DNA from: an uncultured Actinomycetes bacterium
GTDB taxonomy: Bacteria > Actinomycetota > Thermoleophilia > Gaiellales > Gaiellaceae
Reading direction: 5' to 3'
Length of the DNA: 64,000 nt
Assembly: GCA_963809405.1 (NCBI GenBank)
Contig: CAWEJN010000002.1
Location: forward strand, 795,175 to 859,174
The notes under the pieces were generated by a model. That model had not been told where the DNA came from. It did not search any database and worked only from the letters and a program-made list of their open reading frames with translations. The position numbers and the translations under genes were made by a program. This document shows positions 829 through 59,914 of this stretch, in pieces (positions within the stretch are counted from its first letter, which is position 1; each line of letters begins with the position of its first letter).

Positions 829-1518
829 GTGACGACCGCGACCCTCGTTCGAACGGCGTGCACGGCCGCGGTAGCAATCGCGCTCGCGGGGTGCGGCACC
901 GCCGGATACGTGTCGAGCGGGAACCAGGGCGCGGGGAAGAAGCTCTTCGTGCAGGCGTGCGGCAGTTGCCACACGCTCGCGGACGCGGGCACCGCGGGGA
1001 CGATCGGCCCGAACCTGGACGACGCGTTCGCCCAGGCGCGTGACTCGGGGATGACGACGGACACGTTCATCCAGGTCGTCCACGACCAGATCTACGACGC
1101 CCTCGAGAAGCCCTCGACGGGTACCCCAGGGATGCCGCGAATCGACACGACCCTCCCGCTCTGCTCGAACGTGCCGAAGGGCTCGTTCTGCGTCGACGAC
1201 CAGAAGCAGGCGTCGGCGGACATCGCGACCTACGTCGGGTCGGTCGCGGGCACCGGCGTGGTCACTTCGCAGAAGCCGAAGACGGGCAAGGACATCTTCC
1301 TGACCGTCGGCTGCGCCGGCTGTCACACGCTGGCGGACGCGGGGAGCACGGGCAACGTCGGCCCGAATCTCGACGACGCCATGCCGCCGAAGTCCCTCGT
1401 CGTCGATCGCGTGACGAACGGCAAGGGCGTAATGCCGTCCTTCAAGTCGTCGCTCGACGAGAAGCAGATCCAGACCGTCGCCGACTACGTCTCGTCGGTC
1501 GCGGGCAAAGGCAAGTAG
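829..1518 (+). CDS. diheme c-type cytochrome, probable lipoprotein
   Basis: GTG at 829 in frame with the long ORF 106..1518. Lipobox-like AIALAGCG. Two CXXCH haem motifs (CGSCH, CAGCH), each followed by GPNLDDA and a GMP/GVMP Met-ligand region. The upstream part of the 470-aa ORF is Arg-rich shadow sequence overlapping the preceding gene. Confidence 0.85.
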   Translation: MTTATLVRTACTAAVAIALAGCGTAGYVSSGNQGAGKKLFVQACGSCHTLADAGTAGTIGPNLDDAFAQARDSGMTTDTFIQVVHDQIYDALEKPSTGTPGMPRIDTTLPLCSNVPKGSFCVDDQKQASADIATYVGSVAGTGVVTSQKPKTGKDIFLTVGCAGCHTLADAGSTGNVGPNLDDAMPPKSLVVDRVTNGKGVMPSFKSSLDEKQIQTVADYVSSVAGKGK

Positions 1519-1522
1519 CGCG

Positions 1523-2167
1523 TCAGGTCTCGGCGCGCTGCGCCGAGAGGTCCACGACCACGTGCGTGATGGGGACGTCGAAGCGCTCCCGGGCCGCGGC
1601 GACGACACCGCGCTCGAGCCAGTTCGACTTTCCCGCCGGATGCGTCGAGACGACGATCTCGTCGGGATGGAAGCCGCGCACCGCGTCCTCGATCGCCACG
1701 AGCGGGTCGAGATCACCGACTTCGCCGTTTGCGTCGACGCCGACGGAGCGAAGGCGCTCGAGCGTCGAGTCGAGCCGCTCCTGTGCCGCCAGGCGCGCGC
1801 CGTCCTCGTCGGAGGTCCACGTCTTCAGGCGCGAGTTCAGCGCCGGACAGACGACGAGGAAACGCGCCTCGGTCGCGATCGCACGCTCGCCGATCGCGGC
1901 GATGAGCTCTTTGCCGCCGACGGTCTCGTTCGCGACGACGAGGACGCGACGCTCGTCGGGCGAGCCGACGTGGTCGACGTGCACCTGCTCTGGGCGAGGC
2001 GGGCGCTGCCGGAGATAGAGCCAGACCGCGAGCCCGGTCACCGCCAGGAAGACGACGAAGCCGAGGACGTCGTTTATCCACGAGGCGACGACGATGAGCG
2101 CGAACGCCCCGATCGTGAGCAGCAGGAAGCGAAACGCCGCCTCCTCGCTCCGGAACGGGCTTTCCAT
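1523..2167 (-). CDS. two-TM membrane protein with C-terminal uncharacterised alpha/beta (USP/HUP-like) domain; oxidase-linked paralog copy A
   Basis: ATG at 2167 preceded by GGTGAGGTGA (SD-like). Two hydrophobic helices (FLLLTIGAFALIVVASW, LGFVVFLAVTGLAVWLYL). The soluble domain carries VLVVANETVGGKEL, FLVVCPA, DPLVAIEDA, DEIIVSTHPAGKSNWL and THVVVD. These motifs are shared with both halves of ORF 2844..3692. Confidence 0.7.
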   Translation of the reverse strand: MESPFRSEEAAFRFLLLTIGAFALIVVASWINDVLGFVVFLAVTGLAVWLYLRQRPPRPEQVHVDHVGSPDERRVLVVANETVGGKELIAAIGERAIATEARFLVVCPALNSRLKTWTSDEDGARLAAQERLDSTLERLRSVGVDANGEVGDLDPLVAIEDAVRGFHPDEIVVSTHPAGKSNWLERGVVAAARERFDVPITHVVVDLSAQRAET

Positions 2168-2235
2168 TCACCTCACCCCGTGAAGGCGTCCGCTTTGCGG
2201 CCGCTGCGGTCGCGTTGTCGCCCACCGCGATCGCA

Positions 2236-2847
2236 CTAGATGAGGTAGACGGTCGAGTACACGACGATCCACATGACGTCGACGAAGTGCCAGTAGATCC
2301 CGGGGAGCTCGACGCCGTGGTGGTGCTCCGGCGAGTAGTGCCCGCGGAAACCGCGAATGGTCACGACTCCGAGCAGGGTGAGACCGACCGCAACGTGCGC
2401 TCCATGGAGCCCGGTGAGCCCGAAGAAGACCGATGCGAAGGCGCCGTCGCTCGTGTTGAACCCGACGTGCAGGTACTCGACGACCTGCGTGCAGAGGAAC
2501 GCGAGGCCCATCGTGAAGGTGAGGACCATGCCCGCAAGGAACGCCGGACGATTCCCGCGCTTGATCGACTGGAGCGCCCAGTGCATCGTGAAGCTCGAGG
2601 TGACGAGGATCGCCGTGTTGATGCCGGCGACGAAGACCGGGAAGTGGAAGGGTGGCGGCGGCCAGGTCTCGGGCGCCCCCGGGTTGACGACGCGGACGAA
2701 GAAGTACGCCGTGAAGAACGACCCGAAGAGCATGATCTCCGAGCCGATGAAGAGGAGCATCCCGAGGACGCGCGCGTCGACACGGGAGCTCTTGTTCGCC
2801 GTCGGCGGGCCGTGATGCTCGTGCAGCGACTCCGCGTGGCTCGTCAT
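2236..2847 (-). CDS. ctaE: cytochrome c oxidase subunit III
   Basis: 203 aa from ATG 2847. Multi-TM protein with typical subunit III segments (FGSFFTAYFF, GLHGAHVAVG, YWHFVDVMWIVVY). The ATG overlaps the upstream stop as ATGA. Confidence 0.9.
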   Translation of the reverse strand: MTSHAESLHEHHGPPTANKSSRVDARVLGMLLFIGSEIMLFGSFFTAYFFVRVVNPGAPETWPPPPFHFPVFVAGINTAILVTSSFTMHWALQSIKRGNRPAFLAGMVLTFTMGLAFLCTQVVEYLHVGFNTSDGAFASVFFGLTGLHGAHVAVGLTLLGVVTIRGFRGHYSPEHHHGVELPGIYWHFVDVMWIVVYSTVYLI

Positions 2848-3692
2848 GCGGGCACCGCCGCGGAGACGGGATCGACGACGACGTGGTCGACCGGGAGGCG
2901 GCTCTCCGAGCGGAGACGTCCGACGAGGTCGCGCCGGAGCCAGCCCGAGCGCTCGCCGGGATAGGTCGAGACGATGATCTCGTCCGTCCGGTCGTCGGCG
3001 ATTGCGTGCATCGCCGCCGTGAACGGGTCCGGATGGGCGATCTGGCCGTGCACGTCGACACCCTCCGACCGAAGCGTGGCGAGCGCAGCGCGAAGCCGGC
3101 GCTCTGCCTCCGGATGGTCGGCCTTCGTCGGGTCGCTCTGCGGGCACACGATCAGGAAGCTCGCGGACCCCTCGCTTGCGCGAGCGCGAATGCGTTCGAG
3201 CAGGGCGTCGCCGAGCACGGTCTCGTTCGCCACGACGAGCACGTTGACGCCGGCGCGCGCGGCGACATCCGATACGACATGCTCGACGGGGCGGCCCGCC
3301 GCCGCACGCCGGACCTCCTCGACGAGGTCCTTCCGCAGCCAGCCGGACTTCGTCGCAGGGTGGGTCGACACGATGATCTCGTCCACCTGCTCCGACGCGA
3401 GGACGTCCTTGACGGCTGCGAGCGGATCGTCGTCGTAGACGGCGCCGTGCGCGGGAATGCCGGCGACGCGGAGCGCCTCGAGCGTCCGCTCCAGCCGGCG
3501 GCCGGCGGCGGCGCGCCGCGAGTCGGTGTAGACGACGTAGCCTTGTCTCGGCCGGCTCACCGGAACGAGCACGAGCACACGCACCGGCGCGCTCTCGGCA
3601 TGACGCTTGACCGCGTCGACGAGCTCCTGGCCGACGAGAGTCTCGTTCGCCACGACGAGCAGCGCGGTGGGTTGCTCGGCAGACGGGCTCAC
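2844..3692 (-). CDS. tandem (2x) uncharacterised alpha/beta (USP/HUP-like) domain protein embedded between ctaD and ctaE
   Basis: C-terminal 282 codons of the artefactual 877-aa ORF 2844..5477. GTG at 3692 overlaps the ctaD stop (GTGA) and its own stop overlaps the ctaE ATG (ATGA). Two repeats each carry L(L/V)VANET, DP(L/F)xA, DEIIVST(H/Y)P..SGWLR and (E/D)HVV. Confidence 0.75.
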   Translation of the reverse strand: MSPSAEQPTALLVVANETLVGQELVDAVKRHAESAPVRVLVLVPVSRPRQGYVVYTDSRRAAAGRRLERTLEALRVAGIPAHGAVYDDDPLAAVKDVLASEQVDEIIVSTHPATKSGWLRKDLVEEVRRAAAGRPVEHVVSDVAARAGVNVLVVANETVLGDALLERIRARASEGSASFLIVCPQSDPTKADHPEAERRLRAALATLRSEGVDVHGQIAHPDPFTAAMHAIADDRTDEIIVSTYPGERSGWLRRDLVGRLRSESRLPVDHVVVDPVSAAVPA

Positions 3693-5650
3693 ACGTGGAC
3701 CTCCTCGAGCTCCTCCTCGCGCGTCTCCGCGGTCCGCAGCACGGCATGGCGGGCGCCGGGAACGCCGTACTCGTACGGCCCTCCCACGACCTGCGGAATC
3801 TCGTCGAAGTTGAAGACCGGCGGCGGCGAGGACACCTGCCACTCGAGCGTGTTCGCGTGCCACGGGTTCGCAGGCGCGATCTCGCCGTGGACCCAGCTCT
3901 GGCTCATGTTGTAGATGAAGACGACGACCGAGGCGCCGAGCACGAAGGAGGCGACCGTGATGGCGAAGTTCAGGTCCCCGAAGGCCTTGTCGTAGTCGAA
4001 CACACGACGCGGCATCCCGCGCAGTCCGATGTAGTGCATCGGGAAGAACGTCGCGTTGAAGCTGACGAACGTGAGCCAGAAGTGGAGCTTCCCGAGCCGC
4101 TCGTCGTACATGCGGCCCGTCATCTTCGGATACCAGAAGTAGATCCCGGCGAAGATCGTGAACACCGAGCCGCCGAAGAGCACGTAGTGGATGTGCGCGA
4201 CGATGAAGTACGTGTCGGAGGAGGCGATGTCGATCGGGACGGAGGCGAGGTAGACCCCCGAGAGGCCACCGATCACGAACATCGTCACGAAGCCGAGCGC
4301 GAACAGCATCGGGGTCGTCAGGTGGATGCGTCCTCGCCATAAGGTCGCAGTCCAGGAGAACACTTTGATCCCCGTCGGCACCGCGATCAGGAGCGTCGTG
4401 ATCATCATCGGGACGCGTAGCCAGTCGGCCATACCGGCGACGAACATGTGGTGCGCCCACACCGAGAAGCCGAGGACGACGATGCCGACGAGCGAGAGGG
4501 CCATCAGCCGGTAACCGAAGATCGGCTTGCGGGCATTCGCGGAGATCACCTCGGAGACGATCCCGAAGCCGGGCAGCATCATGATGTAGACGGCCGGGTG
4601 GCTGTAGAACCAGAAGATGTGCTGGTAGCCCAGCACGTACCCGCCTCCCGACGGGATGAAGAAGTCGGTGTGCATGATCCGGTCGAAGAGGACGAAGAAC
4701 TGCGAGCCGGCGATGAACGGCGTCGCGATCACGACGAGGAGCGACGTCGTGAAGTTCGCCCACACGAGGAGCGGCATGCGCCAGAACGTCATGCCCGGCG
4801 CGCGCATCGTGATGATCGTGACCAGGAAGTTCAGCGCCGTCATCACCGACGACGCGCCCGCCCACTGCACGCCCATGTTGAAGAACGTCTGGCCCATCGG
4901 CTGGCCCTCGGCGAGCGGGGCGTAGCCGGTCCAGCCGGTCGCGAACGAGCCTCCAGGCGCGAGGAAGCTCGTCAGGAACATGACGCCGGCGATCGGAAGC
5001 AGCCAGTACGAGAGCGCGTTCAGCCGCGGGAACGCCATGTCCGGCGCGCCGAGCATCAGCGGAACGACGAAGTTCGCGATCCCCGCGAACGCCGGGATGA
5101 TGAAGAGGAAGATCATCAGCGTCGCGTGTGCCGACACGAGCCCGTTGAAGGTCTGCGAGTCGAGGAACTGAAGGCCCGGCCGTGCGAGCTCGGCCCGGAA
5201 GAACATCGCCATCAGGCCGCCGATGACGAAGAAGACGAACGTCGTGACCAGGTACTGGATCCCGATCACCTTGTGGTCCGTGTTGACCCGGAAGTAGTCC
5301 TTCCAGCTGAAGGCGCCGTGGCCGGAGTGGTCCTCGGGCCGCGTCGGACGTCCGGAGATGTAGTAGAGCCAGTAGTCGAATGCGCCGATTCCCGCTAGGA
5401 ACCCGATCGGCGCGACCACCATCCCGGCGAGCGTGACGATGAGCTCCCAGTTCCAGATCGGGTCCCAGTTCCACCACCAGCGCAGGCCGGCGACGAGGAG
5501 CATTCCGCCGAGGAAGAAGAGCGCGGCGAACCAGAGACCGCGGAAGATCCCCGGGCCGAAGACGGCGCGCCAGGTCGGCCCGTGCGGTGGCTCGAAGTGC
5601 TCGGGGTAGAGCTCCGCGTGCTCGGGCTCGTGCTGCGCGGTCGTCGTCAC
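3689..5650 (-). CDS. ctaD: cytochrome c oxidase subunit I (haem-copper oxidase)
   Basis: 12-TM haem-copper oxidase sequence (WFYSHPAVYIMMLPGFG, VWAHHMFV, VAHIHYVLFGG). Start placed at GTG 5650 (VTTTAQHEPEH...), which overlaps the ctaC stop as GTGA. The 62 upstream codons of the ORF lie inside ctaC. Confidence 0.95.
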   Translation of the reverse strand: MTTTAQHEPEHAELYPEHFEPPHGPTWRAVFGPGIFRGLWFAALFFLGGMLLVAGLRWWWNWDPIWNWELIVTLAGMVVAPIGFLAGIGAFDYWLYYISGRPTRPEDHSGHGAFSWKDYFRVNTDHKVIGIQYLVTTFVFFVIGGLMAMFFRAELARPGLQFLDSQTFNGLVSAHATLMIFLFIIPAFAGIANFVVPLMLGAPDMAFPRLNALSYWLLPIAGVMFLTSFLAPGGSFATGWTGYAPLAEGQPMGQTFFNMGVQWAGASSVMTALNFLVTIITMRAPGMTFWRMPLLVWANFTTSLLVVIATPFIAGSQFFVLFDRIMHTDFFIPSGGGYVLGYQHIFWFYSHPAVYIMMLPGFGIVSEVISANARKPIFGYRLMALSLVGIVVLGFSVWAHHMFVAGMADWLRVPMMITTLLIAVPTGIKVFSWTATLWRGRIHLTTPMLFALGFVTMFVIGGLSGVYLASVPIDIASSDTYFIVAHIHYVLFGGSVFTIFAGIYFWYPKMTGRMYDERLGKLHFWLTFVSFNATFFPMHYIGLRGMPRRVFDYDKAFGDLNFAITVASFVLGASVVVFIYNMSQSWVHGEIAPANPWHANTLEWQVSSPPPVFNFDEIPQVVGGPYEYGVPGARHAVLRTAETREEELEEVHV

Positions 5651-6354
5651 GTCTTCCGTTGCTCCTTCACCCAGGCGGCGAACTGCGCAGGCGTCACGAC
5701 CCGCGCCTTGGCGCGCATCGTCGCATGCCCGAGCCCGCAGAGCTCGGTGCAGATGACCGCGAACTGGCCGGGATGCTTCGGCGTCACGTACAGCGACGTC
5801 GTGATCCCCGGTACCGCGTCCTGCTTCTGACCCCACTGCGGGACCCAGAACGAATGGATCACGTCGACGGACGTGAGCGACATGTGGACCTGCTGCCCGG
5901 CCGGCAGGACGAGCTCGCCGGTGGTGAGGTTCCCGTACTCGGGATAGCTGAACTTCCAGGCGAACTGCTGGCCGATCACGTTGAGCTGGAGCGGCTTGTT
6001 GCCCGCCTCACCGTTCCGCGCGAGCACGACCGCGCTCACGACCCCGATCGCGATGACGAGGAGCGCGGGGATCGCCGTCCAGAAGATCTCGAGCCCCGTG
6101 TGGCCGTGGATGGGCGGCCCGTCGGCGTCGTCGTCGAGTGGGACCCGGAATTTCCAGACTGAGAAGACGACCACGGACGAGACGAGCGTGAAGATCGCGA
6201 TGGAGACGATCGTCACGAACCAGAAGACGTCGTGGATGCGGTCGAACTCGACCGAGTCGGAGTCGGGGAGCCACTTGAACAGGACAGCCACCAGCGAGAC
6301 GCAAACGCCGATGACGATCCCGATCGCAACGAGCTGCACGATCCCCTTGCGCAC
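5647..6354 (-). CDS. ctaC: cytochrome c oxidase subunit II (CuA)
   Basis: Two N-terminal TM helices, then a cupredoxin domain with CuA ligands (DVIHSFWVPQ ... CTELCGLGHATM). Start chosen at GTG 6354 (VRKGIVQLV...). The longer 579-aa ORF would overlap the divergent capA-like gene. Exact start uncertain. Confidence 0.85.
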   Translation of the reverse strand: MRKGIVQLVAIGIVIGVCVSLVAVLFKWLPDSDSVEFDRIHDVFWFVTIVSIAIFTLVSSVVVFSVWKFRVPLDDDADGPPIHGHTGLEIFWTAIPALLVIAIGVVSAVVLARNGEAGNKPLQLNVIGQQFAWKFSYPEYGNLTTGELVLPAGQQVHMSLTSVDVIHSFWVPQWGQKQDAVPGITTSLYVTPKHPGQFAVICTELCGLGHATMRAKARVVTPAQFAAWVKEQRKT

Positions 6355-6435
6355 CGCGGTCCGAGCGTACTGGAACCGCCCGCTATCGTGCTGTCGAACC
6401 GACCGGCCCCACCAGAGCCCTCTTTCGACCTCTCC

Positions 6436-7500
6436 GTGACTCGCCCGCGCACGCTCCTGCTCGCACTCGCGACGCTCGTCCTCGTGGTCGCCGCGTCTGC
6501 CGCAGGCCGCCCGGATTCCGCCCATGTGGCGGCTCGCGTGGCGACGGCGCCGCCCGCCCGCGGCCCGCTCGGGAGCGGAAAGCCGGTCGTCCTCGCGTTC
6601 GCCGGGGACGTGCACTTCGAGGGCTCGCTCCGTTCGAAGCTCGACGCCTCGCCGTCGACGACGCTCGCGCCGGTCGCACCGCTCCTCGGCCGTGCGGACA
6701 TCGCGATGGTCAATCTCGAGACCGCCGTGACCACACGCGGCACGCCGCAGGCGAAGGAGTTCGTGTTCCGGGCCCCCTCGACGGCCTTCGCCGCCCTTCA
6801 GGGTGCGTCGGTCGACGTCGCGACGATGGCGAACAACCACGGGCTCGACTATGGCCGCGTCGGCCTGACCGACTCGCTCGCCGCGGCTCGCCGTTACCAC
6901 TTTCCGGTCGTCGGGATCGGACGGGACGCAGCGCAGGCGTACGCCCCGTATCGCGTGACCGTCAACGGCCAGCGTATCGCGATCATCGGCGCGACCCAGG
7001 TGATCGACGACCAGCTCATCCGCTCCTGGACGGCGGAGCCGAACGACCCTGGTCTCGCGTCCGCCAAGGACGTGCCCCGTCTCCTGGCGGCCGTACGCCA
7101 GGCGCGGCGGACGGCCGACACGGTCGTCGTGTACGTCCACTGGGGCGTCGAGCTGGAGTCGTGCCCCAGTGCCGTCCAGCGCAAGCTCGCGCACCAGCTC
7201 GTGGCGGCCGGCGCCGACGTGATCGTCGGCAGCCATGCCCACGTGCTCCTCGGCGGCGGCCGGCTGGGTAAGGCGGTCGTCGACTACGGCCTCGGCAACT
7301 TCGCCTTCTACGCGACGAGCGAGGAGACGACGCGATCGGGCGTCCTTTTCGTGACCATGACCGGCCGCCGTGTGGATGCCTATCACTGGGCACCCGCGCG
7401 CATCAACGACGGCGTGCCGAACCCCCTGAACGGCGCCGAGGCGAGCTCGGCACTCGCCTCGTGGCGCTCGCTGCGAGGGTGCACCGGACTCGGCCGGTAG
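6436..7500 (+). CDS. CapA/PgsA-family metallophosphatase-like protein with signal peptide
   Basis: GTG 6436 (VTRPRTLLLALATLVLVVAASAAG). Motifs AFAGDVHFE, MVNLETAV, ATMANNHGLDYG, VVVYVHWGVE, GSHAHVLLGG and GLGNFAFY are typical of the CapA family. Confidence 0.8.
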   Translation: MTRPRTLLLALATLVLVVAASAAGRPDSAHVAARVATAPPARGPLGSGKPVVLAFAGDVHFEGSLRSKLDASPSTTLAPVAPLLGRADIAMVNLETAVTTRGTPQAKEFVFRAPSTAFAALQGASVDVATMANNHGLDYGRVGLTDSLAAARRYHFPVVGIGRDAAQAYAPYRVTVNGQRIAIIGATQVIDDQLIRSWTAEPNDPGLASAKDVPRLLAAVRQARRTADTVVVYVHWGVELESCPSAVQRKLAHQLVAAGADVIVGSHAHVLLGGGRLGKAVVDYGLGNFAFYATSEETTRSGVLFVTMTGRRVDAYHWAPARINDGVPNPLNGAEASSALASWRSLRGCTGLGR

Positions 7501-10034: not shown

Positions 10035-10737
10035 TCACACGTCTCCGCGGGCAGCCCTCCGGAACCTCACCAGGCGGTTGATAGTGCGGGCGGGCACCCC
10101 GAGGTAGAGCGCGATCAGGAGGTAGAGGGCGACTCCGACGGTCGGAAACACGAACCCGACCGCGATCGCCGTCCCGTAGAAGACGTAGCTCGGCCGATGC
10201 TCGAACATCGCTTTCACGAACTCCTCCTCGACGTGATCCCGGACGAGACGGCGTCGCTCGAACGCGTAGCGCATGAAGAGGGTGAGCGAGACGACGAGCG
10301 CGAGCAGGGTGAGCCCGTAGAAGACGACGGCGACCCGCTCCGCGCTCTCCTCGCGGATGAACTCGCCCACGAGCTTCGTCGGAAAGGGCAGGAACGAGAC
10401 GAGTAGCAGCACGAGAAGGTTCAGCCGGTAGAGCGTCGCGTCTGCGCTGCGCTCCCGTGATCCCCGAGTGAGCGAGCCAGACGACCCCGATCGTCATGAA
10501 GCTCGTGACGTACGCGAGGTACTGCGGCCACTGGTGGAGGATCGCGTGCGCCAGGTGGCGGCTCGACCCCAGCGGGACGGCCAGCTCGAGCACGAGGAGC
10601 GTGATCGCAATCGCGAACACGCCGTCGCTGAACGCTTCGAGTCGTCCGAGCGGAAGCTCGTCCGGCCGGTGTGTCTCGTCCGCGTTCACGACACTCCCTT
10701 CGAGTCCTCGACTGTCCTCCCGCGCGCTCGGTGGCAC
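10035..10737 (-). pseudogene. TMEM175/DUF1211-family K+ channel-like gene with an apparent 1-nt frameshift
   Basis: The N-terminal half (RLEAFSDGVFAIAITLLVLE ... TIGVVWLAHS) is in the frame of ORF 10018..10737. The C-terminal half (DATLYRLNLLVLLLVSFLPFPTKL...) continues in the frame of ORF 10035..10412. The switch must lie within about 10433-10466. May be a sequencing error. Confidence 0.6.
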
Positions 10738-50505: not shown

Positions 50506-55913
<5,408 letters not shown>

Positions 55914-55914
<1 letters not shown>

Positions 55915-56975
55915 CAGACGCTCCGGACCGCTCCGGGCGTGACGACGAGCGCCAGCGCGGGCTCCGCGGGAAGAGCGACTGTGGACGTGGCGGTGATCAC
56001 TGTCTGCCCGGCGGTCGCAATCAGCTCGGCGAGGGCGCGGCGCCGGTCGTCGTCCAGCTCGGAGAGGACGTCGTCGAGGAGCACGAGCGGACGCACGCCT
56101 TCGCGCTCTGCGATGGCACGCGCCTCCGCGAGGACGAGCGCGAGCACGGCTACACGCTGCTCCCCCTGCGACCCGAAGCTCCGGAGATCGCGGCCGGCCG
56201 CCTCGATACGGGCGTCGTGAAGGTGCGGGCCGATGCCGGTGGCGCACCGGTCGAGGTCGCGCTGGAGCCGCACTTCGTAGTCGTCGAGCGTGGCGGGTTC
56301 TCCTTCGTAGACGATCGTGGCCGCAGCGAGCAGGAGCCTCTCTGCTACCTTCGCGAAATACGGCGCCAGGACGCCGACCGTCGCCCGACGAGCCTCGACC
56401 AGTTCGCCGCCGAGTCTCGAAACCGTCTCCGTCCAAGGGGCGAGCGCATCGGGCGACGACGCGCCTGCGGCCACCCTGCGAAGAGCCGCGTTCCGCTGCC
56501 CCACCGCCCCCGCATACTCGACGGGGAGCGAAGAGCGGCTCGGGAAGAGGCGACCGAGGCTCCGGTCGAGATACGCCCGCCTCGTCGCGGGCGCTCCTTT
56601 GACGACCGCGAGGCGGTCCGGCGTGAAGACGAGCGTCCGGAGGTCCTGGCGAAGCTGCTCGGCGGAGCGGAGAGCGTCGCCGTTCAGCCGCGCGCGTCGT
56701 GCGCCGTGCGTGCTCAGCACGACATCGCTCTCGTAAGGAGTAGCGGCGGTGATCCCGCGGAGGCCGACTCTTCCGCCCTCCGCACCGAATCGCACCATCT
56801 GTGCGTCGCTCCTCGCGCGCGGGGAGAAGCCCTGCGTACCGACGTGAAGCGCTTCGAGCAGGTTCGTCTTCCCTGCTCCGTTCGCGCCGGTGACGAGCAC
56901 GACGCCGGCCTCGAGCGCAAGCTCGAGCCGGGCGTACGAGCGGAAGTCGCGAAGCGTGACCTCGCGGACGATCAG
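55914..56975 (-). CDS. recF: DNA replication/repair protein RecF (apparent non-canonical CTG start)
   Basis: Walker A GANGAGKTNLLEA and signature LSGGEQ-like SQGEQR. The conserved N-terminus (L)IVREVTLRDFRSY lies upstream of the first ATG/GTG (56900) in an open frame. CTG 56975 overlaps the dnaN stop as CTGA. Confidence 0.85.
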
Positions 56976-58096
56976 CCCGGAAGCCGGATCGGCATGATCA
57001 GGTACCAGAAGCGCTCGTCCGGAGACGCGAGGACCGCCGGTCGCAAGGGGTTGATCAGCTTGAGCTCGACCGTGTCGCCCGCGACCGCCTCGAGCCCGTC
57101 GCGCAGAAAGTCCGGGTTGAACCCGATCTCGAGCAGCTCACCCGTATAGCCGACCGGCAGGGACTCGCGCGCTTCGCCGACGTCCTGAGTCTGCGCGGAC
57201 ACGGTGAGCTCGCCCTCGGCGAAGCCGAGCCGAAGCGGCTGGTTCCGCTGCGCGAGCACGGACGCGCGCCGCACGACCTCGAGCAGCGGCTCTCGCTCGA
57301 CGGTCAGCTCCGCCTCGAACGTCTCGGGCAGAAGCTGCTTGTAGTTCGGGAACTGGCCGTCGATACGACGGCTCGTCAGCCAGACGGCGCCGGTCGAGAA
57401 CACGACGTGGTTCTCGTGGACTCCGAGCTCCACGGTGTCGTTTCCGGCAGCCAGACGCGCGAGCTCCTGGAGTGCCCGAGCCGGGATGATCGCCTCGAGC
57501 TCGGGGCCTGATTCCGACAGCTCCGTCTCCTTCACCGACAGGCGGTAGGAGTCCGTCGCCGCCATCACGAGCTGCGAGCCCTCGAAGTGCACGAGGATGC
57601 CGGTCAGGACGGGTCGCGACTCGTCCCGCGACGCCGCTCTTGCGACCTTCTCGATCGTGCCGAGAAGCGCGCCCGCGTCGATGGTGTGGAGCGGGATGTC
57701 GAGCGCCGGGAGGCGCGGGAAGTCCTCGGCACTGAACACGTTCACTCGCGACGAGTAGCTCCCGGAGGAGACGACGAGGACGCCGTCTCCTGCTTCATAG
57801 GCGAGGGATACGCGGTCGTCGGGGAGGAGCCGGATCAGGTCGGCCAGCAGGCGTCCCGGCACGACCACCTTGCCCTGTCCCGTGACGTCCCCCGCGACCG
57901 TCGCGCGCAGCGACACCTCCATGTCCGTGGCCGCGAGCGTCAGCCGGCCGTCCTCGACCTCGATCAGGATTCCGGTGAGGACCTGCACCGCGCTCCGGCT
58001 CGAGAGACCCCTCGCGACGACGGCCGCAGCAGCCGAGAGATCGTCTCGCGAGATCGAGACGCTCAGGTCTGCGGCGGTGGCGAGATCGGTGTCCAT
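56972..58096 (-). CDS. dnaN: DNA polymerase III beta sliding clamp
   Basis: 374 aa with three-domain clamp pattern. Contains LTGILIEV, LTLAATD, ATDSYRL and the C-terminus YLIMPIRL. Confidence 0.93.
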   Translation of the reverse strand: MDTDLATAADLSVSISRDDLSAAAAVVARGLSSRSAVQVLTGILIEVEDGRLTLAATDMEVSLRATVAGDVTGQGKVVVPGRLLADLIRLLPDDRVSLAYEAGDGVLVVSSGSYSSRVNVFSAEDFPRLPALDIPLHTIDAGALLGTIEKVARAASRDESRPVLTGILVHFEGSQLVMAATDSYRLSVKETELSESGPELEAIIPARALQELARLAAGNDTVELGVHENHVVFSTGAVWLTSRRIDGQFPNYKQLLPETFEAELTVEREPLLEVVRRASVLAQRNQPLRLGFAEGELTVSAQTQDVGEARESLPVGYTGELLEIGFNPDFLRDGLEAVAGDTVELKLINPLRPAVLASPDERFWYLIMPIRLPG

Positions 58097-58266: not shown

Positions 58267-59712
58267 TCACCGGGCCTGCTTGATGCGCGCGGTCAGTTCT
58301 TGCACGAGGTTGTACACAGAGCGATCTTCGCGGATACGGCGCGTGATCTTGTCCTTCGCGTGGATCACGGTCGTATGGTCGCGGCCCCCGAACTCCCGTC
58401 CGATCGCCGGAAGCGAGGAGTCCGTGAGCTCGCGTGAGAGATACATCGCGACCTGGCGCGGATAGGCGACGGCCTGCGAGCGACGGGGGCTGATGAGCTC
58501 GTCGATCGTCACGCCGAACCTCTGGGACACGATCTCCTGGATCCGCGTGATCGTCACCTCGGGCGCCGCTTCTCCCTGCGGAAACACGTCCTTCAGCACG
58601 TGCTCGGCGAGGTCGACTGTCATCGGCCGGTTCGTGAGCGAGGAGAAGGCGACCACTCGCGTGAGCGCCCCCTCGAGCTCGCGGATGTTCGACGAGACAC
58701 GCCCCGCGATGAAGGTGAGCACCTCCGGGTCGTCGACGGCGATTCCTTCTGTGTTGACCTTCTTCAGCAGGATCGCGATGCGCGTCTCGAGATCCGGTTT
58801 CTGGATGTCGGTGATGAGGCCCCACTCGAACCGCGACCGCAGGCGCTCCTCGAGCGTCGCGATCTCCCGCGGCGGACGGTCGGACGAGATGATGATCTGC
58901 GCCCCCGCTTCGTAGAGCGAGTTGAAGGTGTGGAAGAACTCCTCCTGGATCCGCTCCTTGCCCTCGAGGAACTGGATGTCGTCGATGAGGAGGACGTCGT
59001 AGTTCCGGTAGCGGCGCTTGAATCCCTCGATCCTGGCTCCGCGGTCGCGCACCGCCTCGATGAAGTCGTTCATGAACGTCTCGCACGTGACGTACCGGTT
59101 CGTGAGCCGGCGCGAGTGCTGGCGGACGTAGTGCGCGATCGCCTGGAGGAGGTGCGTCTTCCCGAGGCCGGTGTCGCCGTAGATGAAGAGCGGGTTGTAC
59201 GCCTGTGCCGGCGCCTCCGCGACCGCCAGTGCTGCCGCGTGCGCGAACCGGTTGGACGAGCCGATGACGAAGAAGTCGAACGTGTACTTCCGATTCAGCT
59301 CCTCCGACGCATCGCGATAAGGACGGCCACTCTCGACGGTTCGCTCGGCAGTGTGCTCGGGCGGTATCGGCCCGGTTGACGTCGGGCCCGCTGCGGTGCC
59401 CGCGCCCCGGTCCGAGACCTCGAACGAGACGGAGAGCTCGCGGCCGAGCGAGTCACGCGCTGCACTCGCCACCGCGCTCCGGAAATGGCCCTCGACCCAC
59501 TCTCGCGTGAAGTCGTTCGGGAGGGAGACGTGGAGCGCACCGTTCGACACCGACTGCGGTTCCGCATACGCGAACCACCGCTCGAACGACTCCTCGCCGA
59601 GGGTCTCTCGCAGCCGCTGCGTGAGCGCGGCCCAGATCCCATCGGCGGTCGGTGCTGTCGTCTGCTCCACCCTCTCGTCGAGGTCGAAGGTCGTCGCGAA
59701 GGGGCCGAGCAT
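58267..59712 (-). CDS. dnaA: chromosomal replication initiator protein DnaA
   Basis: Start at ATG 59712 (MLGPFATTF...). AAA+ domain ([23 protein letters not shown]). Domain IV ([29 protein letters not shown]). Confidence 0.96.
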
Positions 59713-59806
59713 AGCAACGTTCCCGCTCCGGCTCAATGGGGTGACCGACCCCTCTTCTGGGTGAAAAAACACGCCGTTTTGCAGGGCTTTCCAGGATGCC
59801 CACACG

Positions 59807-59914
59807 TCTTTCCACAGGTGTGGAAGACATGCAGAGCGTTCTCTTTCGCGACAACACACTCTTCGCGTGAGCAGCGAATTCGACCCCACGCCGCCGACGG
59901 GTCACTGTGGAAAA
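59807..59914. promoter_or_regulatory. DnaA boxes upstream of dnaA / rpmH
   Basis: Convergent pair TCTTTCCACA-GG-TGTGGAAGAC (59807-59828) and TGTGGAAAA (59906-59914, reverse complement TTTTCCACA). A TATACT -10-like hexamer at 59937-59942 precedes rpmH. Confidence 0.6.

Follow-up and report, generated by a model that had tools for sequence, protein, structure and literature searches.

Oxidases of the A2 type, among them the caa3 enzyme of Thermus and the CtaCDEF oxidases of actinobacteria, are built on subunits II, I and III, with a CuA site in subunit II and, in helix VI of subunit I, a YSHPAVY motif that we take to mark the A2 type in the Pereira classification; in Thermus caa3, subunits I and III are fused and subunit IV is a two-helix protein. 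In descriptions of bacterial haem-copper oxidases, the enzyme lies wholly in the membrane and its accessory subunits are small and hydrophobic, and how activity is controlled after assembly is poorly understood; to our knowledge, no such oxidase described so far has a soluble cytoplasmic subunit or domain. In the mitochondrial oxidase, nucleotide-binding subunits of the matrix side (IV, Va/Vb and VIa) are non-catalytic, lie on the N side and have been proposed to exert allosteric control. Here we describe a cytochrome c oxidase operon in a 64-kb stretch of DNA (the window; contig CAWEJN010000002.1, positions 795,175 to 859,174) from an uncultured bacterium of the family Gaiellaceae, in which two additional open reading frames (ORFs), B between the genes for subunits I and III and A after that for subunit III, encode three copies of a domain with the fold of universal stress proteins (USPs). 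We favour, with moderate confidence, the reading that ORF B and ORF A serve an A2-type aa3 oxidase of Thermoleophilia as lineage-specific subunits on its cytoplasmic side, accessory or regulatory in role and drawn from a divergent branch of the USP fold represented by TT0030 (PDB 2IEL).

With positions counted over the whole window, all genes of the operon lie on the minus strand in the order ctaC-ctaD-ORF B-ctaE-ORF A, and 5/5 ORFs translate at the coordinates below free of internal stops (lengths in amino acids, aa; HMM, hidden Markov model).

5647 to 6354, minus strand: ctaC, oxidase subunit II, 235 aa (Pfam COX2_TM and COX2; NCBIfam CoxB, 1.3e-54)
3689 to 5650, minus strand: ctaD, oxidase subunit I, 653 aa (Pfam COX1, 1.6e-151, over aa 129-569)
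2844 to 3692, minus strand: ORF B, 282 aa, soluble, GTG start, two TT0030/USP-like modules in tandem (translation, HMM, AlphaFold, Foldseek)
3255 to 3668, minus strand: module B1, about aa 9-146 of ORF B (HMM domain; DSSP E9-15 to E136-140)
2856 to 3248, minus strand: module B2, about aa 149-279 of ORF B (HMM domain; DSSP E149-154 to E268-272)
2236 to 2847, minus strand: ctaE, oxidase subunit III, 203 aa (Pfam COX3, 1.2e-41)
2168 to 2177, minus strand: Shine-Dalgarno-like GGTGAGGTGA abutting the ORF A ATG, at the end of the ctaE-ORF A spacer (sequence read)
1523 to 2167, minus strand: ORF A, 214 aa, an N-terminal motif, a two-helix transmembrane hairpin and one TT0030/USP-like module (translation, AlphaFold, Foldseek)
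2009 to 2146, minus strand: transmembrane hairpin of ORF A, helices aa 8-31 and 33-53 (DSSP on the model; hydropathy)
1532 to 1951, minus strand: module A, aa 73-212 of ORF A (HMM domain, i-Evalue 3.7e-57)

As read from the sequence, neighbouring genes overlap by GTGA (ctaC/ctaD), GTGA (ctaD/ORF B) and ATGA (ORF B/ctaE), and a spacer of 68 nucleotides separates ctaE from ORF A, with GGTGAGGTGA directly 5' of the ORF A ATG. The five ORFs, their coordinates, the overlaps and the spacer with its Shine-Dalgarno sequence had all been reported in a first-pass annotation of this DNA, and translation reproduced every one of them. A promoter and terminator scan of 1300-6700 gave nothing above shuffle expectation. 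An 877-codon ORF running in the ORF B frame across ctaD (2844-5477, minus strand) was rejected as a fusion, being a shadow frame of high-GC DNA (about 68% G+C); equivalent shadow frames of ORF B across ctaD occur in two relatives, L089 and L091, and could mislead gene callers.

Subunits II (CuA), I and III are present and contiguous by Pfam and NCBIfam, which makes this an A-type haem-copper oxidase operon. CtaC carries the CuA site CTELCGLGHATM, with the ligands C-x3-C-x3-H-x2-M, and is without a fused cytochrome c domain (sequence, Pfam); helix VI of CtaD reads FWFYSHPAVY, and its C-terminal tail ends in ...VVGGPYEYGVPGARHAV; CtaE, at 203 aa, is presumably the short form with five transmembrane helices. 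The operon shares subunits II, I and III, the CuA site and YSHPAVY with the A2-type oxidases introduced above, and differs from them in the tandem USP-like gene between subunits I and III, the anchored copy after subunit III, the lack of a nearby CtaF and two extra helices in subunit I. These helices are predicted within an N-terminal extension of CtaD of about 120 aa (5290-5650, minus strand; hydropathy peaks at aa 29 and 67), the Pfam COX1 match beginning only at aa 129, after the extension, and they would bring subunit I to 14 helices. The extension also occurs in P0217, a CtaD fusion protein taken up below, and a DUF4389 domain takes its place in the relative L090.

The modules are about 135 aa long. 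B1 and B2 are 39% identical in pairwise comparison (E 3e-26), which bears out the tandem duplication first proposed for ORF B, and module A is 43% identical to both B1 (E 5e-24) and B2 (E 6e-21); together with hydropathy and the predicted model, this identity upholds the earlier description of ORF A as a two-helix membrane hairpin joined to a third copy. Alignment of the three modules gave 40 invariant columns, including LVVANET, DP, DEI.VST.P, S.WL and HVV, so the motifs said to be common to all copies are indeed found, with the correction that copy A has DEIVVSTHP and not DEIIVSTHP. A six-frame HMM scan of the 64 kb found just these three modules. Across the A family, an N-terminal motif, M-x-(S/N)-P-F-R-S-E-x-x-A-F-R-F, is conserved while the hairpin sequence varies, the hairpin being the least conserved part of A and the motif and module the conserved parts. 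P0135, a representative protein of 205 aa, combines an A-type N-terminal hairpin with a B2-type module, the result either of recombination or of chimeric assembly of a metagenome.

Neither ORF A nor ORF B reached any Pfam or NCBIfam model, and neither matched Pfam PF00582 (Usp) at E<=1; among 30 diverse modules, five match Pfam Usp weakly, below the gathering threshold, with a best E of 0.004. Weak Pfam and NCBIfam matches of the two ORFs (CCB1, PilB3_N, DotU and others) fell far under threshold and were discarded, and the JGI automatic names of homologues ('phosphopantetheine adenylyltransferase', 'GABA permease', 'UspA family') were taken for weak echoes of the HUP class rather than for indications of function. 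A profile made from the three window modules only matched PDB 2IEL (Thermus thermophilus TT0030) at E 7.1e-16, over profile positions 2-133 and chain residues 3-136, and an exhaustive profile search returned 4,930 clusters (50% identity) at E<=1e-3 and 2,540 at E<=1e-10. The TT0030/2IEL family is thus sizeable and without a curated model.

AlphaFold models, made from representative proteins of the ORF A and ORF B type, show each module as a five-strand beta-alpha domain in beta-alpha-beta order, with two such domains in B (pLDDT 84.3, pTM 0.71) and a pLDDT of 91.6 for A. Foldseek comparison with the PDB gave 40-49 matches at E<=1e-3, dominated by USPs (TM-score 0.55-0.72, normalised to the target), and 2IEL superposed with a TM-score of 0.74-0.80 normalised to 2IEL (0.79-0.80 for the A model) and a root-mean-square deviation (rmsd) of 2.8-3.5 angstroms. 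The best matches of B were the tandem USPs UspE (5CB0), YdaA (4R2K), Rv2623 (3CIS) and TTHA0350 (3AB7), 2IEL and the C-terminal domains of KCC and NCC transporters, and those of A were 2IEL, TeaD (3HGM), the KdpD USP domain (7JI4), MJ0577 and many other USPs. The HUP/USP-type fold guessed at in the first-pass annotation is therefore what the models return, 2IEL being followed by almost only USPs. The module had also been called uncharacterised, which stands insofar as no named Pfam or NCBIfam family covers it and fails insofar as the structure of a homologue has been solved as 2IEL; full-text literature searches on 2IEL/TT0030 turned up no relevant paper. The module is a divergent branch of the USP superfamily, the TT0030/2IEL family, outside Pfam Usp and the ATP-binding USP subclass.

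TT0030, deposited by structural genomics as a 'hypothetical protein', is homologous over the whole module, sharing the P after strand 2, an aromatic-acidic loop and S-T-x-P...S-x-W-L after strand 4; it differs in being a single soluble domain, in having VVAHRT where the modules have VVANET, in the location of its Thermus orthologues away from cox genes and in having no assigned function. The tandem USPs UspE, YdaA, Rv2623 and TTHA0350 resemble ORF B in their two USP-fold domains per chain (Foldseek E 4e-08 to 1e-05), but they are 12-18% identical to it, none is encoded in an oxidase operon, and whole-chain superposition is poor (TM-score about 0.33, rmsd about 19 angstroms), so that the packing of the domains differs or is uncertain.

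Two of these tandem proteins, Rv2623 and TTHA0350, bind ATP through the motif G-x2-G-x9-G(S/T), which is lost in the modules of ORF A and ORF B. In the profile alignment, MGSHG...LLGSV of MJ0577 (1MJH) falls on vSThp...rrdl, the three glycines being replaced by S, P and R/K-D within the stretch S-T-H-P...(R/K)(D/G). The conserved residues of the family stand at the C-terminal ends of the strands, N-E-T at strand 1, P at strand 2, D-P at strand 3 and S-T-x-P with S-x-W at strand 4, and the conserved H lies in strand 5. On the models, the strand-end residues are predicted to line the usual ligand crevice of such folds, with a different chemistry; since the classical USP ATP site is not kept, any ligand need not be ATP bound in the canonical manner.

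Other USP-fold domains are tied to membrane proteins. TeaD (3HGM), the third-best Foldseek match of ORF A, is co-encoded with the membrane complex that it regulates, the teaABCD TRAP transporter of Halomonas; it binds ATP and acts on the transporter, and is the closest functional analogy, although it is neither membrane-anchored nor tandem and is not fused to its partner. The C-terminal domains of KCC1-4 and NCC, which account for many of the Foldseek matches, are USP-like tandems that extend a polytopic membrane protein at its C-terminus, in the manner of the CtaD fusions described below, but they belong to eukaryotic transporters of the APC fold controlled by phosphorylation and dimerisation, and the likeness is one of fold only (8-17% identity).

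The arrangement seen in the window is widespread among its relatives. Scanning one genome per species returned 80 loci, with A-module identities of 63-96% and whole-ORF A identities down to 53%, all from metagenome-assembled genomes (MAGs) of Gaiellaceae, Gaiellales or Thermoleophilia type, taxonomy labels that are only as reliable as the binning; proteins related to those of the window carry the label Gaiellaceae, and at ORF B the window matches a 3.1-Mb metagenome contig with 100% identity. By tblastn with the window proteins, ctaE stands directly upstream of the A homologue in 78/80 loci, one of the other two being cut by a contig end and the other, L069, having A alone, and B lies between ctaD and ctaE in 75/80, with B absent in L024, L041 and L047. 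In the 50 loci that hold all five genes in full, the proteins are on average identical to those of the window at 62.8% for CtaC, 79.9% for CtaD, 68.1% for B, 78.2% for CtaE and 65.4% for A, and B and A diverge along with CtaD (r 0.91). Identities near that of CtaC, together with this correlation, point to a constraint comparable to that on a core subunit. In the genome paper of Gaiella occulta, the oxidase genes are given as Gocc_0001, 0002 and 0004, omitting 0003 (PMC6741124), which fits a B-type gene between subunits I and III in a cultured type strain.

Eleven further relatives were looked up one by one; seven of them, more divergent than the loci above, lie in cox operons and four do not.

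L087: COX2(+cyt c)-COX1-tandem-COX3-A
L088: COX2-COX1-tandem-COX3-A
L089: COX2-COX1-tandem-COX3-A order plus one intervening gene
L090: COX2(+cyt c)-DUF4389::COX1-tandem-COX3, without A
L091: COX1-single module-COX3-A
P0217 and L084: two COX1 fusion loci
L085, Thermus orthologue of TT0030: not adjoining cox genes
L086, Chloroflexi-like single-domain protein: not adjoining cox genes
P0150, protein with a hairpin and two modules: not adjoining cox genes
L092, module with C-terminal transmembrane segments, beside an ABC transporter: not adjoining cox genes

The A-type gene follows COX3 in 4/7 of the cox-linked relatives, which include caa3-type operons and one single-module B. The module's place among cta genes, first remarked on in this one window, is thus held both in the large majority of the 80 loci and in these seven. 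The fold itself is general, and the oxidase link is limited to a Thermoleophilia-centred subset.

This record bears on the view that A and B are ordinary stress-protein paralogues, co-transcribed under oxygen or energy stress, that do not bind the oxidase. USP genes are often induced together with respiratory genes in hypoxia, and the solitary Thermus and Chloroflexi homologues in unrelated neighbourhoods, like the weak Pfam Usp matches of 5/30 modules, would suit such paralogues; yet an in-operon position held in 75 to 78 of 80 genomes, the parallel divergence of B, A and CtaD, a membrane anchor on A with a conserved N-terminal motif and the existence of CtaD fusions make it very improbable in our judgement.

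In a sister family, the Miltoncostaeaceae, the tandem is joined in frame to the C-terminus of CtaD, in support of our preferred reading. P0217 (921 aa) joins COX1 and the tandem module in one frame; it occurs on three contigs, downstream of a COX2 gene. With its last 331 residues as query, 55 proteins were retrieved, many of them with PF00115 and spanning the whole tandem; clean fusions (P0440, P0451 and P0459) come from NCBI MAGs labelled Thermoleophilia and Miltoncostaeaceae, and the COX1-tandem fusion occurs in at least 15 clusters beyond P0217, P0440 and P0451. The junction is collinear with the window, the conserved CtaD tail VVGGPY.YGVPGARHAV being followed by about 17 residues and then by strand 1 of the first module. 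In P0440, P0451 and P0217, the second fused module is without NET, STxP and SxW (e.g. VVVADAG...ILVIAARGGRLES), and the first keeps all of them; this pattern of loss suggests that the NET/STxP/SxW residues may be functional rather than required for the fold, and that the fused second module may have become a purely structural pseudo-domain. Judged from their sequences, these natural CtaD::module fusions argue for physical association.

Other apparent fusions were set aside. P0470, P0487 and P0491, which look like module::CtaE or triple fusions, come from long-read MAGs, contain frameshift stretches and were not counted, and P0132, P0134 and P0191 were discarded for the same frameshift problem. 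P0487 and P0470 (ENA long-read MAGs) resemble CtaD-tail::module::CtaE, unverified in view of their frameshift-like stretches; if genuine, they would parallel Thermus caa3 in joining subunits I and III, here through a USP-like linker. In a rough neighbour-joining tree without bootstrap, modules cluster by position (B1, B2, A, fused 1 and fused 2) across lineages, with the A type nearest the stand-alone forms, and the duplications would therefore be older than the split of those lineages.

It could be argued that A and B are transient factors of oxidase biogenesis, engaged in haem or copper insertion or in chaperoning subunits, and not parts of the mature enzyme. Their genes accompany the structural ones, as ctaG, surf1 and ctaA/B do in other cox clusters; Caa3_CtaG, COX15-CtaA and UbiA genes do lie near the operons of L088 and L090, and cofactor binding by the conserved His (HVV) and other polar residues is conceivable. 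However, in-frame fusion to the CtaD C-terminus across a whole family implies a permanent 1:1 attachment, which would be unusual for an assembly factor, the overlapping codons between subunits I and III suggest stoichiometric production, and we know of no USP-fold protein that acts as a haem or copper chaperone. We consider such a role unlikely by a good measure.

A further proposal, made in the first-pass annotation, concerns ORF A, whose hairpin might replace subunit IV (CtaF), making A mainly structural and its soluble domain secondary, an idea that is compatible with our preferred reading. Among genes within about 10 kb of the operon, none belongs to a CtaF or Cyt_c_ox_IV-type Pfam family, ORF A likewise having no match, in agreement with the first-pass annotation, which had seen no ctaF-like gene here; A follows ctaE in 78/80 loci, and its two helices recall the subunit IV of Thermus caa3. 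Against this, the hairpin is the least conserved stretch of A, the two extra N-terminal helices of CtaD could equally fill the role, some B-bearing cox operons are without A, and ORF A has neither a Pfam or NCBIfam match to subunit IV nor any oxidase subunit among the top 50 Foldseek matches listed. We hold the replacement to be unlikely. A 125-aa ORF with three predicted transmembrane segments and no Pfam match (10035-10412, minus strand; about 4 kb off) was also considered as a small oxidase subunit, and nothing supports it.

Returning to A and B as cytoplasmic subunits, their placement follows from topology. The C-terminus of subunit I lies on the cytoplasmic (N) side in A-type oxidases, ORF B has no signal peptide and no transmembrane segment, and arginines follow helix 2 of ORF A; with the CtaD C-terminus in the cytoplasm, B soluble and both ends of the hairpin of A on the same side, all three modules would face the cytoplasm, on the side of the oxidase from which the D and K pathways take up protons. 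There, B may dock on CtaD/CtaE, and the hairpin, with the conserved N-terminal motif, may hold A beside the complex; a conserved motif ahead of a variable hairpin fits a docking peptide. By analogy with TeaD, the USP domain of KdpD and the C-terminal domains of cation-chloride cotransporters, the modules would most likely form a regulatory or stabilising cap, whose conserved crevice (N-E-T, P, D-P, S-T-H-P and S-x-W) may bind a ligand or a partner surface and thereby adjust the activity or stability of the oxidase. Both marks of USP regulators attached to membrane complexes, a shared operon or fusion to the partner, are found here, the former in the window and the latter in its CtaD-fused relatives.

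Several observations weigh against this reading. A and B of the window are unfused, and physical association with the oxidase is for them a prediction only. The glycine motif of ATP-binding USPs is missing, which leaves the nucleotide-sensing role entertained in the first-pass annotation without support. Homologues in Thermus and Chloroflexi, as well as two other architectures, sit away from cox genes, and the fold is to that extent not oxidase-specific. A and B also occur singly (L024, L041 and L047 without B; L084 and L090 without A; A alone in L069) and are consequently not obligate partners. Finally, the sampled relatives are those closest to the query and not a random draw from the roughly 4,900 clusters of the family. 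On balance, physical association of A and B with the oxidase seems to us rather probable, and any specific ligand far less so. A more ambitious version, in which the three modules would cap the proton-uptake face from the cytoplasm and respond to a ligand, giving Thermoleophilia an allosteric 'respiratory control' through a ligand site without the ATP motif, seems unlikely. Full-text literature searches turned up nothing on these proteins or on their association with oxidases.

Beyond the operon, a gene convergent with ORF A is of interest.

829 to 1518, plus strand: dihaem cytochrome c, 229 aa (Pfam Cytochrome_CBB3/Cytochrom_C, two stretches)

Its N-terminus, ...LAGCG, looks lipoprotein-like, and 4 nucleotides lie between its stop and that of ORF A. 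In L001 and L088 a comparable cytochrome c comes after A, and in L091 one stands two genes past A; the protein is a likely candidate for the electron donor of the oxidase, an arrangement that differs from the bcc-aa3 supercomplex of other actinobacteria. In three relatives, small CBS-pair proteins of 133-139 aa are encoded near module-bearing cox operons (L088, 7535-7954; L089, 7815-8216; L090, 1467-1886), a putative instance of another adenine-nucleotide-binding fold close to oxidase genes. Besides, two of these genomes hold a second COX2-COX1 cluster a few kb from the module-bearing operon (L088, 8379-12672; L089, 8648-12428). UbiA (haem O synthase-like) belongs to both clusters and COX15/CtaA to that of L088 alone, and neither cluster has COX3 or USP-like modules, so that in the L088 and L089 genomes the modules accompany only one of the two oxidases. 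At the far end of the window, gyrA (50506-53019), gyrB (53012-55393), dnaN (56972-58096) and dnaA (58267-59889), all on the minus strand by Pfam, indicate that the window adjoins the chromosomal replication origin region.

Taken together, the modules are probably unrecognised cytoplasmic parts of the oxidase, with a USP-like tandem standing in the operon, or fused to subunit I, throughout an actinobacterial class that is abundant in soils. A domain on the cytoplasmic face would allow direct regulation or stabilisation of the oxidase at the side of proton entry. Should the ligand-responsive cap prove true, it would be the first case of soluble regulatory subunits on the cytoplasmic side of a bacterial terminal oxidase, a counterpart, from an unrelated fold, of the matrix-side regulatory subunits of mitochondria; the parallel with mitochondrial IV, Va/Vb and VIa would be functional, folds and origin being unrelated. 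The finding also gives a first functional context to the orphan structural-genomics fold of 2IEL, with its roughly 4,900 clusters and no Pfam model, and Gaiella occulta, which is cultured and whose gene order fits that of the window, offers a system in which these ideas are directly testable.

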